Shown piece by piece: positions 1 to 64,000 of a DNA stretch of 64,000 bases. The stretch lies in the IMG/VR virus record IMGVR_UViG_3300045988_152007, positions 124,475 to 188,474 of that record, one strand, 5' to 3'. The position numbers were made by a program, and so were the translations under genes. A model generated the notes under the pieces. It was not told the DNA's origin and did not search any database. It was given only the letters and a program-made list of their open reading frames with translations. This stretch comes from a virus. Position 1 is the first letter of the stretch, and the number at the start of each line of letters is the position of its first letter.

Positions 1-2109
1 CTTGGTGTTTATCCTAAAAAAGATGCTACTGATAGTTGGCCAAGTAATAATAATTCTTCTAATGAAAATAATAATAATAATAATAAAAATGACAATTATA
101 AAGATGATAACACATTAGATCCGGGTTTTGGTATTCCTGCCTCTTGGTGGCGTAAAGGCCAAGGGACTGGAGATTTAGAAAATTACGGCATTATGCTAAT
201 ATCTAATACAAAAGAATTAGATCCAGGTTTTATGGTACCAGAGCTAGGTTCTACAGTGTTAGATCCAGATTTTATGTTACCACCAGATCAAGAAAATAAT
301 GCAAATAAAAATAATAATTCTTCTAATGATAAGTCTGATGATAATAATAATAATACAACGATTAATGAATCTAAAGAATATTATTTAACTATAATAAAAA
401 ATATAGATAATAAAAATATTTTAGGCTATTATGATAGCGAAGGCTAGTGGATTTAGGTTTACGAATTAACTGAAGAACTTTCATTAAGAAATATAGAAAA
501 TTTTTTAAATACTATTAAAATTAATTATTATATTAAAATTATTAAAGATATAAATTTTGATGAAAAAAATAAGGATTATGATTTTAGTTTTATTGATTCT
601 AATAATTTAATTTCTATAAATAATACTATTGTTGCTAGTTATAAATTAATTAGTTACAATGAATCTAAAAAGAAGACAGAATATAGTTATGTATTTCCTA
701 ATAATTATCCAGTAATAAAAAATAAAAATAATGAAACTGTTATTACTGAAGAAGAACACAACGATTTAGTTAAAAAATTATTAGAATATTATAAAACAAA
801 TAAAGATGATTTAACTTCAGATATTGAACTAATTTATAGTTATAAAAATATGGAAGAAATTCCTAAAGATGATTCATCTAAGCCAAATAAACCTGGCAAT
901 TCAGAAGATAATAATATACCTGGTCCTACTCCTAGAGATCCAAATTATGGAATTATGCCTTTAGATGTTTTAGATCCAGGTTTTACATTAAAACCCAATG
1001 AAGAGAATAATAATAAAGATAATACATCAAATGGAAATACATCGGGAGGAAGTAATTTATTGTTACCATTCTTAGATCCAGTAGATGGTAAAAAAGATTA
1101 GTTAAAAATCTTAGGTGATTAGGAAGATATAATAAAAAAAATTTTTATTTTGCGTGATGATGGTAATTATTCATTAAATGAAATTATTGAAGAAATTACT
1201 AAAGCTTATAATTCTAATATTCTTGATTTTTCTACTATTAATGATAATAATAAAATTAAAATTATTACATATACTCCTAAAGAACCTCCTTTTGATTATG
1301 AAGATAATTTTTATTTTACTTTAATTGGTACTCCTTGTAATGAATGGCGTGAAGAATTATTTAGACAAGCTTTATTAAATAATGAAAATGGCACTCAGAA
1401 AGGAGACTATGATGATGAATTATTAGCTAAAATAGATGGTGAATATCTGTGGCGTAAACAAATATTTAATCCTTAGAATGAAACTTGGCATGAAGAATGG
1501 CGGAATCAAATTGATTAGATTGAATCAAAAAATTCTTCTGAAAAAAATCAAAATGAAGAAATCATACCTGATACTTGGATTGGATGGAATCCTGCTATTT
1601 ATCTTGATCCTAGCTTAATAACATATTGGTTAGATTTTATTGATGTAGATTAGTTAGTATCTAGATATTCAGTTAATAAAATAGGTCGGCGTACTAAAGC
1701 ATTGACTAAAACTAATATGAGTCTTTTATATAAATTAGAAGTGCCTGATATCATATTTTTTGAAAATACTGGGGAAGCAGATTTAATTCAAAAGATAGAA
1801 GATTATACATTAAAAGGTTAGGCTTATTGTGCTTTAAAACCGGGGCAAATGAAATTATTTAGTTCTAGCGGAACAGGAAGTACGGCATTTGATTATATAA
1901 GAGAAATGTTATATTAGTATTTAATTTATAATTTAACTGTTACTATTAACTGTGCGCCAAGATATTATTTAGAACCTAATAATTTAATTTATATAAATGA
2001 TAGAAAAAGTAATATACAAGGGGAATTTGTTATAACTCAATATACTCTTCCTTTAACTTATAATGGAAATATGTCGATTACAACAAATGAAGCTTTAACA
2101 AGAGTATAA
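1..2109 (+). CDS. Large structural protein, truncated at its 5' end, with repeated LDPGF motifs. Probably a tail or baseplate component. It contains many in-frame TAG codons.
   Basis: One continuous frame runs through ORF-track pieces 193-447, 850-1101 and 1150-1476 and on to TAA at 2107-2109, once TAG is read as sense. A GGAGG Shine-Dalgarno for the next gene follows immediately. The C-terminal part is beta-rich. Confidence 0.5.
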
Positions 2110-2120
2110 GGAGGTAAATA

Positions 2121-2822
2121 ATGGGAATTCAATTTAAACAAATTGTTTATAATTTAGAGGACTATGGTGGTTCTGGTGGATTAGTTTCTACTAAATAGGG
2201 AGATTTATCTGAATTAGTATATAGTGCTGTATATCAGAATAATTTAAATGATTCTACTGAAACTACTACCAATGATGAAACAGATTATGAAAATAAAAAA
2301 ATAGATATTTTTGGAGTTAATATTTTAAAAGGCTTCAATAATGTAAAAAAAATAGGTATTTAGGCGCCCCCTGGTACTAAATTCACTTTTAATAAAGCAA
2401 CTACGCAAGATACTGGAGAATGGATTATGGTTGGACGTACTGGTATTTATGAACTTAATGATGATATTGTAATTAATTATTTAAGATTTCAACGTCCTTA
2501 GAATTATATTGTAAATAAAGAATTAAGTCAATAGTTATAGGCTACTGGAACTGGAATAATGAAAGTGGCAAGAGATATATTTTTATAGAAAATTAATGAA
2601 TTAGAAAAAACATTAGGTTAGGCTCCTGATCGCACTGAAGCTGGTTCAGAATATTGGACTGAATATAATAATGCTCATCAAAATTATATAACTTAGTATA
2701 AAAGTGGTTTAGGAATTTATTTAAAAGGTAAAGCAGGAGTATATGTACCTGATCCAACTATTGTAGATTTATATAATATAATTATAGACTTTACTTATGA
2801 AACATATGAAGGGGGAGACTAA
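2121..2822 (+). CDS. Hypothetical late or structural protein of about 233 aa, with about 8 in-frame TAG codons.
   Basis: GGAGGT Shine-Dalgarno 8 nt upstream of ATG 2121. The frame stays open to TAA 2820-2822 only if TAG is sense. Confidence 0.45.
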
Positions 2823-61227: not shown

Positions 61228-61242
61228 TTTTTCTCCTCCTTA

Positions 61243-64000
61243 TTAATTATTTAAAATATCTGGTGACCAAATAGCAGAAATTGGAGTCCATTTAACATTA
61301 GATAACTCAGCTTCACTATATTTACCTTCACTATTTTCTCCACCAGAACGCCAATAGACTAAGCCATATCCAGATTCATTATTAGTACAAATCCAAATTT
61401 TTGGGAAGAATTTATCACTTAATACTGGTTTATCAGGCTAGGAAACTATTAAAGTACTTATACGATTTAATAAATAAGCATCCTAATTATTTTTATTAAT
61501 ATTTTTTATCTCTTCTTCAATAGCTCCAATTTTTTTATTTATAATTTCAATAGCATTTTCTAAATCAGTTATTCTTTGTAATATATTATATTTTTTCGTT
61601 AAATAATAATCAATTCTTTTATCAATTACACTCTATAACCAATTATAAAACCATAATTCGTATCCTATAGTTTGATCATTGTTTTTATATACAATACGAT
61701 TAGCAATATATCCAGGTTGCTCAGGATCATTTTCATCCCAATTGCTAACCAAATCAGATAAAAATGTTGTATTTAAGCTACGAGTTTTATAATGAAAAAT
61801 TATTTCTAAGTTTTTAGTCTACTTTAAATATCCAATTAAACTAGCTAATCGCATATAAATAGCTCTATCTTTTGAATCAAAAATCATTTCATTATTAATT
61901 TCATAATAAACATTTTCTCCGTTAAAGCCTTCTATAATAGTATTATCTTTATTTAATGATAATGTTTCAATTAATTCTTCTAAAATTTCTTCTGTAATAT
62001 CTTGCATTTCAATTTCATTTAATTGATTCATAAGATTATTTTTAGAAATCTAAACTTGTTTTAATAACTATAATCTGTCATCATCAGTCAAATTATAATC
62101 ATAATAAATATTACCATTTTTATCTAATTTTTTTTCTAAACTTAAACGTTCAATTAAGAAATTTTTACCATTAAAAATAGTAATATCAGAATTTAATCGA
62201 ACTTTATTACTTAGTTCAGTTTTTAATCCTTGCTTTAATTTTAAATATTGTTCATCTGTAGGAGCTTTACCTTCAATAAAAGCGATTAGAATAGACTATT
62301 CTTCTAAATTAAATCTATTATTATATACATATAATGTATCTTTAATAATTTGATTTAAAGTCTATTTCTCTTTAGTTTTTAAAATATTAGATTTATAGAA
62401 CCAATAACGAGGTTGTTTATTTATTTCTAAACTTATTGAATCATTGTTTTTAATTATTTGTTTTAAAGAAGTTTTATCATCTTTAGACAAATCTTCAGTG
62501 ATAGCTATTTTATTATTTATATAGTTAACTAAGAATTGAATTTTATCTTCAAATGCAGTTTTTTCTATATCTAAAATAGCATATGGAGTTTCTGCTGTTT
62601 TATTATAATTTTCAATTGCATTATTTAATAAAGTAATTAATTTATTTATTGTTTCTTCATTTTTAGAAGCATTAGGAACAATAAATTCTAATTTATTAGT
62701 AATATAATTCTTATATTTTCCTTCAGTAATATAATTATTAATTTTAATTTTTAATAATTGCTATAATATTTCTGTATATTCTAAATAAGTTTTCACAGTA
62801 AGACTATTATCTATTAAATAATTGAGATAATTAATTTCATTATCATAAAAAGGTGCTGTTGCACCATACATATGAATTTCATAGTATCCCCAATTATTAT
62901 CATTATAAATTAGTAAATCATTAGGATGGAAATAATTATTACTAATTTTTATATATTGTTCATTATTAAAAATTTTTAATTTACCTTTATCTTTGACTGT
63001 AATAATTACATCATTAGTAATTTTATCTGTTGTAATTATTTTTGTTAATTCAACTAATAATAATTCTTTATCTGTTGGTTCAATAATTGAATTTCCTTCA
63101 TTAATTAAATCAGTTAAATAAACAAAATTTTTAGCAATTAATTGGACATCATTAGTTTCAGCCTAATAATAATTCTATAATTTATTAATTACCGTATCTC
63201 TGTTAGTTTTACCAGTATCATTATTAGTAAAAATTTGTGTGTTAGTATTAGTTTTATCTTTTAAATCATAACTACCAGCATTAACAATATAAATTAAAGC
63301 TTGTTTTTCAGCCGGTGTTAATGCATTTGTTTTTTGGATATCAGGCTTTGGATAAGTAATATTAAATAAATCTAAAAGTCCAGTAACTAATATCTATTTT
63401 TCATTATCATATAAACTACTTGAGGGAATTAATAATGTTTTTTCTTTACTTTGATAAAATAAATCATCATTAAGAATTGGTTTATTTTTAATATAGCTTG
63501 GATTTGTGGGGTCAATAGCTGTCCAATCTCCCTATACATTACCGGCGGTGAGAGTTGGCAAATCTCTAAATAATGTTGTGCCATCACCAATTTTTATTGA
63601 TATAGGTGCTACTCCTGTGTAATCTATATTTTCTGTAGACACTACAATATTACCATCAGCTTTTGGATCATTAAATAATACTGACTTTGATACACAATAA
63701 TGTATTTGTGAAACATTAGAATCAGTATTAAAATCTTCTTGGGCTGGTACTAATTCTAGTTTATCTAATAGTATTTCTTTGTTAGATTGTATTGCTGAAT
63801 TAATAGTATAATTAGAAGGTAAAAGTTCACTTTCTTCAATATTAATACTAGGAGTTATTTTATCAGCATTATTTTGAAGCCAATTAAGAAGAACACCAGT
63901 CGGAACAGTATCAAATTCAAGCGTTTTGTAGGCCTCATTATCCCAAACAAATGCAGAGTCTAAACCAGGGTCACGTCCCGCAACCTCACCAATAGTGCCA
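61243..64000 (-). CDS. Large tail fibre or receptor-binding protein. The 5' part lies outside the window. TAG-dense.
   Basis: Frame open from the window edge to TAA at 61243 across many TAGs. Contains a GDWTAIDPTNPSYIKNKP tail-fibre repeat signature. Confidence 0.55.

Follow-up and report, generated by a model that had tools for sequence, protein, structure and literature searches.

Several conserved enzyme genes in a 64,000-nucleotide stretch of viral DNA (hereafter the window; IMG/VR record IMGVR_UViG_3300045988_152007, positions 124,475 to 188,474) are interrupted by in-frame TAG triplets, and other genes of the same stretch contain none. Does TAG still terminate translation here, what does it encode if it does not, and what governs its uneven use? 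An earlier note, made from the letters alone, had proposed that TAG is reassigned much as in genetic code 15 while TAA and TGA still terminate, that early genes are free of TAG and late genes dense in it, and that genes taken to encode MVP, Ro60 and flotillin would by implication be early genes.

TAG is a sense codon

Coding density was estimated by greedy tiling of open reading frames (ORFs) and compared after TAG or TGA had been removed from the set of stop codons. The density rose from 0.65 under the standard code to 0.92 when TAG was read as sense; with TGA as sense it was 0.64, and an additional recoding of TGA in the window was rejected for want of any gain. Re-calling with translation table 15, a check that the earlier note had proposed, increased the number of ORFs of at least 300 amino acids (aa) from 9 to 22. 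The resulting gene set comprises 69 genes, about 19,900 codons and 170 in-frame TAGs; TAG is present in 40 of the 69 genes (58%) and absent from the remaining 29. Among the 68 tabulated genes, 50 end in TAA, 18 in TGA and none in TAG, and the additional gene at 6751-6987 ends in TAA. The gain in density and the complete lack of genes ending in TAG thus bear out a code-15-like reassignment in which TAA and TGA still stop translation.

Pfam matches run unbroken across the TAGs of NrdD, the RecJ-like exonuclease, the endolysin, a methyltransferase, PhoH, the DnaB-like helicase, the Toprim primase and a UvrD-like helicase. The anaerobic ribonucleotide reductase NrdD (754 aa; 11392-13656, minus strand) contains 9 TAGs and matches the Pfam families NRDD (positions 2-562 of 562), ATP-cone and Gly_radical. 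Read in the standard code, it would fall into fragments of 31, 40, 21, 299, 47, 107, 167, 20, 11 and 2 aa, so that the four or five pieces counted previously are a fair description of the sizeable ones. The RecJ-like DHH exonuclease (580 aa; 22402-24144, minus strand; Pfam DHH and RecJ_OB) had been correctly seen to be split by TAGs, but carries 14 of them and not about 10. In the endolysin (41333-42625, minus strand; CHAP and Amidase_2 domains), TAGs occupy residues 320 and 356; the Amidase_2 match covers residues 202-336, and the C-terminal zinc-binding His...Cys ('TVHRWFANKSCPG') lies past the first TAG, as the note had observed. Likewise, the N6-adenine methyltransferase (56910-58088, minus strand; Eco57I/N6_Mtase) with its GNPPY motif is split, as described, by a single TAG, which was found at residue 261.

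Identical TAGs were seen again in more than 20 independent assemblies, and 77% of the aligned TAG codons were also TAG in the relative. This recurrence argues that the TAGs are not an artefact. A reading in which TAG is a true stop, and the interrupted genes are pseudogenes, split genes or products of assembly error, is hard to reconcile both with positions conserved in this manner and with domain matches that remain continuous through 170 TAGs in 40 genes.

TAG stands for glutamine and has a predicted decoder

Codon-level exchanges were scored by aligning the window to 18 related loci, which are referred to below, together with further relatives, by L numbers. CAA codons changed most often to TAG (75 cases, as against 38 to CAG), even though TAG differs from CAA at two bases. 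Opposite a TAG of the window, the relatives had CAA in 35 cases and CAG in 11. Exchanges with codons one base away from TAG were very rare: TAC, TGG, TTG, AAG or GAG stood opposite it in 1-3 alignments each, and no TAG exchange was found among the listed top changes of TAT, TGG, TTG and GAG. In alignments of less than 80% identity, the relatives had Q 131 times (mostly CAA), TAG 90 times, K 51 times and E 46 times at 118 TAG positions. When likelihoods were computed from empirical substitution profiles of the same alignments, Gln beat the next candidate, Lys, by 262 log units. The earlier note had also proposed to align the TAGs of NrdD to homologues. In distant cellular NrdD homologues the TAG columns fall inside the alignment, not at natural domain ends, and hold E, K, R and Q; this is the neighbourhood expected for Gln, and it is by itself weakly diagnostic, as these appear to be variable surface positions. 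Taken together, the exchange spectrum, the likelihood and the NrdD columns indicate that TAG is decoded as Gln, as a synonym of CAA and CAG.

A search for a suppressor tRNA beyond the window, the remaining check that had been suggested, gave a positive result. On L013, a locus of the contig that is 99.96% identical to the window and represents the same genome, ARAGORN and Rfam both predict a 75-nt tRNA(CUA) at 3829-3903. This is equivalent to window positions ~66,347-66,421 on the minus strand, 2.35 kb past the window's right edge; within the window itself, the same two programs found no tRNA or other RNA family. The predicted tRNA(CUA) scores 49 bits with the Rfam tRNA model, and its sequence recurs unchanged in 7 of 8 extracted strain copies, the remaining copy differing by one base. 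It belongs to a cluster of tRNA genes past position 64000, immediately upstream of the tail-fibre gene, where it is flanked by tRNA-Gln(UUG) and tRNA-Gly(UCC). It has G18-G19 in the D-loop, a canonical T-loop, a 5-bp anticodon stem, a U1-U72 mismatch and the discriminator base G73. A weak first pair and G73 are identity features of tRNA-Gln, and the unpaired U1-U72 together with G73 gives tRNA(CUA) a suggestive resemblance to them.

Could TAG nevertheless encode another residue, such as pyrrolysine, Tyr, Trp, Lys or Glu? ARAGORN labels the tRNA 'tRNA-Pyl', a label that follows from the anticodon alone, and E, K or R stand at several TAG columns of the distant NrdD homologues. The exchange spectrum and the likelihood, in contrast, point to Gln. 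Moreover, tRNA-Pyl has an unusual shape, whereas tRNA(CUA), as read from its sequence, has an ordinary elongator architecture, and no pylS or pylBCD-like gene was found among the proteins of the window. In view of the conserved TAGs, the continuous domains, the Gln spectrum and the canonical tRNA, we rejected pseudogenes, assembly error and pyrrolysine, and consider it extremely improbable that TAG is a true stop or encodes any of these other residues. As far as sequence analysis goes, the reassignment of TAG to Gln and its decoder can be regarded as established.

TAG is unevenly used and selectively excluded from some genes

The TAG share of Gln-like codons was 0.22 overall and was heterogeneous among genes (chi2 = 188, df 48, p = 2e-18). 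It amounted to 0.13 in replication and nucleotide genes, 0.10 in auxiliary genes and 0.45 in structural and lysis genes; this use of TAG for 45% of the Gln codons agrees with the earlier claim that late genes are TAG-dense. Significantly TAG-high were the tail/structural genes at 2118-5723, the gene at 6306-6737, RecJ, an 87-aa gene at 14314-14607 and a membrane protein adjacent to the endolysin.

The first of the two structural genes encodes 233 aa (2118-2822, plus strand), has an AGGAGG ribosome-binding site and relatives of 48-93% identity, and is enriched with 8 TAGs (binomial p = 0.0075); the second encodes 965 aa (2826-5723, plus strand) and contains 21 TAGs (p = 8.5e-5). A Gln-rich gene of 143 aa (6306-6737, plus strand) has 11 TAGs, or 1 codon in 13 (p = 7e-4). 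The small gene that follows (78 aa; 6751-6987, plus strand) is the densest of the window with 8 TAGs (~1 codon in 10). The previous estimate of about 1 codon in 8 for 6306-6987 was therefore close to the measured 11/143 and 8/78, if somewhat high. With 14 TAG versus 10 CAA codons (p = 1e-4), RecJ is as TAG-rich as the tail genes; its close relatives (93-96% identity) carry 11-14 TAGs, and that of L106 (76%) carries 7. Directly downstream of the endolysin, a membrane protein of 152 aa with hydrophobic segments (40854-41312, minus strand) has 5 TAGs (p = 0.007); from its position it is a probable lysis accessory protein.

Significantly TAG-low were DnaE, topoisomerase II subunit A, the MVP-like gene and the flotillin gene. 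DnaE, the DNA polymerase III alpha subunit (1333 aa; 14567-18568, minus strand; Pfam), has no TAG among 57 Gln codons (binomial p = 8e-7), and is TAG-free in 13 of 15 relatives of 59-98% identity. Three further genes contain no TAG in the window: subunit A of topoisomerase II (GyrA/ParC-like; 34442-36823, minus strand; Pfam DNA_topoisoIV), subunit B (GyrB-like; 36765-38663, minus strand; Pfam) and the ATP-dependent DNA ligase (33178-34386, minus strand; Pfam). Of their relatives, 29 of 29, 26 of 27 and 11 of 11, respectively, are TAG-free as well. All of the genes that had been listed as TAG-free indeed contain no TAG, and their identities hold with the exception of the label 'Ro60', discussed below.

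We then compared, in the relatives, the number of Gln positions showing CAA/CAG variation with the number of positions showing TAG. In structural genes the counts were 12 versus 34. In DnaE they were 29 versus 1 (Fisher p = 4e-10), and in the TAG-free auxiliary genes at 47385-56800 they were 27 versus 0 (p = 6e-11); in flotillin alone, 12 Gln sites vary between CAA and CAG in the relatives and 0 show TAG. Since CAA and CAG turn over freely while TAG is excluded, these results point to gene-specific selection against TAG. Judged from these comparisons, the avoidance of TAG is maintained by selection in DnaE, topoisomerase II A and B, the ligase, RNase H, dUTPase, and the MVP-like, DUF2828 and flotillin genes. 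The selective exclusion of TAG from some genes also makes it unlikely that code 15 is used by the host itself.

Does recoding delay virion and lysis functions?

We consider it highly likely that the window comes from a code-15 phage that has its own tRNA(CUA) and a selectively TAG-free set of genes, and in which recoding would delay virion and lysis functions. According to this account, tRNA(CUA) would supply the decoding of TAG at least in part. The TAG-free genes would be those that need to be translated by the unmodified, standard-code machinery of the host, and the TAG-containing genes would yield full-length products only after the suppressor tRNA accumulates or RF1 is countered. Recoding might thereby both delay and coordinate the functions of the virion and of lysis.

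The position of the first TAG within genes was examined by permuting TAG among each gene's Gln-codon positions (5000 permutations). In 27 of 37 genes, versus 18.2 expected, the first TAG is reached by codon 32, an excess found in 0 of the 5000 permutations. In the subset of genes with a good Shine-Dalgarno sequence, the count was 12 of 18 versus 7.3 expected (p = 0.003). Tentatively, such an early first TAG would suit a gate that aborts translation early.

Several points weigh against a function in timing. To begin with, that function is something we infer, and the selective avoidance of TAG is consistent with it. As a functional classifier the gate is leaky: many genes of DNA metabolism have TAGs, and some genes are TAG-free by chance. 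RecJ, the DnaB-like helicase (25896-27428, minus strand; 3 TAGs, none in standard-code relatives), the Toprim primase (24156-25259, minus strand; 2 TAGs) and the UvrD-like helicase all carry them. The claim that early genes are TAG-free held in part: it stood for DnaE, topoisomerase II, the ligase, and the MVP-like, DUF2828 and flotillin genes, and failed for these four and for NrdD. NrdD has 9 TAGs while its obligate partner, the activase NrdG (10563-11051, minus strand; Pfam Fer4_12 and Radical_SAM), has 0 in the window. In L103-L108 and L112, NrdG does contain in-frame TAGs, and the genes at 44204-44821 and 44817-45701 also gain TAGs in relatives; these three genes would therefore be TAG-free by accident. 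In addition, genes with and without TAG lie intermingled along one long minus-strand array, with no significant clustering (runs test p = 0.22), and the 5' bias of the first TAG was not reproduced in small samples of relatives (p = 0.14-0.69). Finally, no RF2, glutaminyl-tRNA synthetase (GlnRS), other aminoacyl-tRNA synthetase or code-change factor was found among the domains of the window genes or in the public gene calls for the first 6 kb past the right edge. GlnRS is lacking in many Firmicutes, which bears on how tRNA(CUA) is charged.

Some of these points are also what would be expected if recoding were real and its distribution non-regulatory, with TAG drifting in as a neutral synonym of CAA and CAG once the suppressor tRNA had been acquired, and being absent where a premature stop is costliest or where genes are recent arrivals from genomes with the standard code. 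In many genes TAG and CAA replace each other rapidly, the replication genes are mixed, NrdG and other genes gain and lose TAGs, and genes do not cluster by TAG state. Furthermore, the existence of standard-code and apparently TGA-recoded relatives suggests that the code is evolutionarily labile. Neutral drift, however, does not account for a TAG that is kept out of DnaE, topoisomerase II and the auxiliary block while CAA and CAG turn over there; selection against TAG is sensible only if, at some stage, suppression is lacking or incomplete. Nor does it account for the enrichment of TAG in structural and lysis genes or for the early position of the first TAGs. We regard neutral drift as a rather unlikely explanation.

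The auxiliary genes may be TAG-free for reasons other than early expression

Four TAG-free genes on the minus strand stand out among the auxiliary genes: a flotillin/SPFH gene (47385-48455; 42% GC and CAG-preferring), the MVP-like gene (829 aa; 52176-54665; Pfam MVP_shoulder and Vault_3), a gene for a DUF2828/DUF7788 protein (55244-56782; Pfam) and a gene for an SLH-domain protein (59113-60249). The DUF2828 protein is the one that had been called Ro60; a sequence search of the PDB did not connect it with Ro60. The 44-62 kb region contains 15 terminator-like sites versus 6.6 +/- 2.9 expected, and four of its five strongest terminators come directly after these genes: at 47355-47386 (flotillin), 52142-52173 (MVP-like), 55217-55240 (DUF2828) and 59079-59104 (SLH). 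Each consists, on the minus strand, of a 10-14 bp hairpin and a subsequent T-run.

That the MVP-like, DUF2828 ('Ro60') and flotillin genes are expressed early does not follow with any certainty; a horizontal origin or a class of highly expressed genes could explain their features equally well. Under such an explanation, these three genes and the SLH gene would be TAG-free as horizontally acquired moron-type cassettes, or as very highly expressed genes, that retain the codon usage of a host (CAG and AAG), and not as early genes. The window median of third-position GC content (GC3) is 0.17; values of 0.28-0.33 set the MVP-like, DUF2828 and flotillin genes apart, and SLH, at 0.156, is not an outlier. 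CAG is preferred over CAA by 27:1 in the MVP-like gene, 12:1 in DUF2828 and 18:5 in flotillin (2:2 in SLH), and AAG exceeds AAA in all four genes, with GAA retained. All four have strong terminators of their own. The nearest non-phage homologues of the flotillin (63-68% identity) are found on Oscillospiraceae and Clostridiales contigs of 61-63% GC, and the flotillin gene looks horizontally acquired from these comparisons. In L028, moreover, the Lys codons have shifted to AAA and Gln is still encoded by CAG only.

On the other hand, these genes have long been resident: their orthologues in related phages, at 66-84% identity, are still TAG-free even though a single transition converts CAG to TAG, which argues for continuing selection and not for recency. 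A cassette origin would also leave room for early expression, and it leaves out DnaE, topoisomerase II and the ligase, whose codon usage is ordinary for the phage. It is quite possible, if short of an even chance, that the four genes are TAG-free as acquired or highly expressed cassettes and not because they are early. They may be host-derived or highly expressed cassettes, which would be compatible with early expression without proving it.

A more elaborate version of the timing account can be put forward, in which TAG acts as a 5' gate and a 'standard-code regulon' is kept under selection. Such a regulon would include the core replisome and the four terminator-bounded genes, of which all but the SLH gene (similar in its AAG preference only) are clearly adapted to host codons. 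These four would encode immediate, pre-switch host-takeover proteins, perhaps acting together with the ROOL RNA described below. We think it unlikely that this version is correct.

Additional features lie in the same part of the window. A NADAR gene is located at 51379-51825 (minus strand), near the MVP-like and DUF2828 genes. The methyltransferase gene and an adjacent 203-aa gene (56910-58725, minus strand) form a variable cassette, present in the window, L003, L006 and L013-L018, and absent from the near-identical L001, L002, L004 and L005. A radical-SAM enzyme with a C-terminal Cys cluster (45680-46978, minus strand) is followed by a 286-aa protein (44817-45677, minus strand) without a Pfam match, the first ~130 residues of which are dense Cys/Gly/Ser repeats (CxxC-like). 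From their sequences, the two resemble a peptide-maturase/substrate pair.

Other genes, RNAs and relatives of the genome

The remaining structural and lysis genes also carry TAGs. A baseplate/tail-like structural gene, the 5' end of which lies outside the window (1-2109, plus strand), has 9 TAGs among 20 Gln codons and a weak PHROG match only. A holin of 135 aa (5737-6144, plus strand; PHROG 13712, E = 1.7e-29) contains 1 TAG. At the other end, a tail-fibre-like gene of 1182 aa in full (61243-63999, minus strand; 5' end outside the window) has 13 TAGs within the window. PHROGs gave no function for most structural genes, and a terminase is absent among the window genes. A 78-aa gene is also present in L099 at the place matching that of the gene at 6751-6987.

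The region of the tRNA cluster encodes other RNAs. At L013 2345-2938, equivalent to window positions ~67,300-67,900, the ROOL RNA model of Rfam (RF03087) is matched over its full length (1-574/574, 323 bits). This RNA sits between tRNA-Gln(UUG) and tRNA(CUA); the MVP-like and DUF2828 genes lie a few kb away. ROOL RNAs form homo-oligomeric RNA-only complexes (PMC12286853). A RAGATH-33 RNA (139 bits) is located at L013 4840-4952. The gene for tRNA-Leu(UAA) is intact in L001 (1211-1296); in the window's genome, an insertion of ~738 nt with a 148-aa ORF (L013 ~4037-4774) splits it within the anticodon, behind nucleotide 34. The group I intron of tRNA-Leu(UAA) classically inserts at this position; no Rfam intron model scored above threshold at the insertion.

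The relatives differ in both gene content and code. Conservation is strongly mosaic: in IMGVR_UViG_3300045988_169451, for example, DnaE is 98% identical and the 233-aa structural protein (2118-2822) only 50%. The DnaE match spans 4.9-5.2 kb and not 4.0 kb in L103, L109 and L112, which suggests insertions in the gene, and the syntenic NrdD of L103 and L106 is just 33% identical, a different NrdD having taken its place. NrdD relatives at 71% identity have no TAG, and DnaB, PhoH and a GIY-YIG protein are intact without TAG in standard-code relatives. In some of the relatives found via topoisomerase A (53-57% identity), in-frame TGA occurs 5 times in the RNase H of L130 and 3 times in the DnaB of L132, and L138 shows a large gain in ORFs when TGA is read as sense; other relatives look standard-code. 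From these patterns, codes 11 and 15, and probably also code 4, coexist in this phage family, in keeping with reports that the code is labile within clades (bioRxiv 10.1101/2021.08.26.457843).

The phage, its host and its place among recoded phages

The window has a GC content of 29.5% and matches scaffold_35 of BRIT16-1 (ENA ERZ28568211; 188,115 bp, human-gut metagenome) with 99.96% identity over 21.8 kb. The same phage was found again in many cohorts on contigs of 183-194 kb, which yielded at least 120 NrdD protein clusters at 91-99% identity. The source of the window is a lytic human-gut phage of ~186-188 kb. A DnaE megablast against GenBank phages gave no match, and tblastn with the MVP-like protein retrieved distant huge-phage records only, so that neither search produced an annotated close relative. 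Public gene calls on matching contigs already translate through TAG, giving a 430-aa endolysin and a 1182-aa tail protein; the alternative code has thus been recognised by automated pipelines. The phage has been mis-binned into 'Clostridium sp.' and 'Mollicutes' metagenome-assembled genomes (MAGs). Together with the SLH-domain protein, the CHAP/Amidase_2 endolysin and the flotillin relatives in Clostridia MAGs, this mis-binning signals a Gram-positive, Clostridia-like host, and the host is probably a Clostridia-type Firmicute.

TAG-recoded, code-15 gut phages have been described by Borges et al. (bioRxiv 10.1101/2021.08.26.457843), including the 150-210 kb clades Jade, Sapphire and Agate. In those phages 26-71% of genes are recoded; structural and lysis genes are recoded and the replication machinery is variable. 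The present phage is similar in many respects: TAG stands for Gln, GC is low, there is a tRNA(CUA) of its own, structural and lysis genes are recoded with replication genes variable, and the 58% of recoded genes falls inside the published range, with recoded modules spread over the genome. A Firmicute or Bacteroidete host is predicted in both cases, and close relatives use codes 11, 15 and 4. The likeness to Jade, Sapphire and Agate is one of genome size and coding pattern only. The phages differ in that no 'code-change module' of release factor and synthetase is seen here near the lysis genes; RF2 and aminoacyl-tRNA synthetases are optional as code-change factors and have been reported for few genomes only. 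They also differ in that the endolysin lies here among auxiliary genes of a long minus-strand array and the holin with tail genes on the other strand.

Code-15 crAss-like phages, for which recoding was validated by metaproteomics (Peters et al., PMC9523058), share with the present phage the change of TAG to Gln, the human gut and recoded late genes. In contrast to them, the phage studied here shows Gram-positive host signals (SLH, CHAP plus amidase, Clostridia flotillin), has ~188 kb and is known from sequence alone. TAG recoding has also been reported for Lak phages, as cited in bioRxiv 10.1101/2021.08.26.457843. The MVP-like protein is 38-40% identical to ORFs of huge phages of 462-735 kb (Lak megaphages/'huge phages', LR756500-LR756503), which resemble the present phage in this protein and in TAG recoding. 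The identity is distant, however, and the present genome is three to four times smaller; Lak hosts are Prevotella.

Viral MVPs have been reported in gut phages, one of which, ct2Ri15, was linked to the MAG Clostridium sp. SUG910 (bioRxiv 10.1101/2023.11.10.566534). Contigs of the SUG910 MAG carry flotillin genes 99% and 77% identical to that of the window, and the window's phage probably belongs to the same lineage as the ct2Ri15-type MVP phages or to a sister lineage. Stop-codon recoding, suppressor tRNAs and the genetic code are absent from that report, and it does not seem to take up the adjacent DUF2828 gene or the ROOL RNA.

Recoding of this kind is well known, and the window adds one more lineage, a very abundant one, without altering the current view of stop-codon recoding in phages. 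For annotation, this lineage must be translated with table 15, as table 11 loses a third of the coding capacity and makes the tail, lysis, NrdD and RecJ genes look like pseudogenes. A concrete and testable tRNA(CUA) can be named. In addition, the lineage provides a clean demonstration, within itself, that selection keeps a defined set of genes TAG-free, which is the kind of evidence that the timing model needs.

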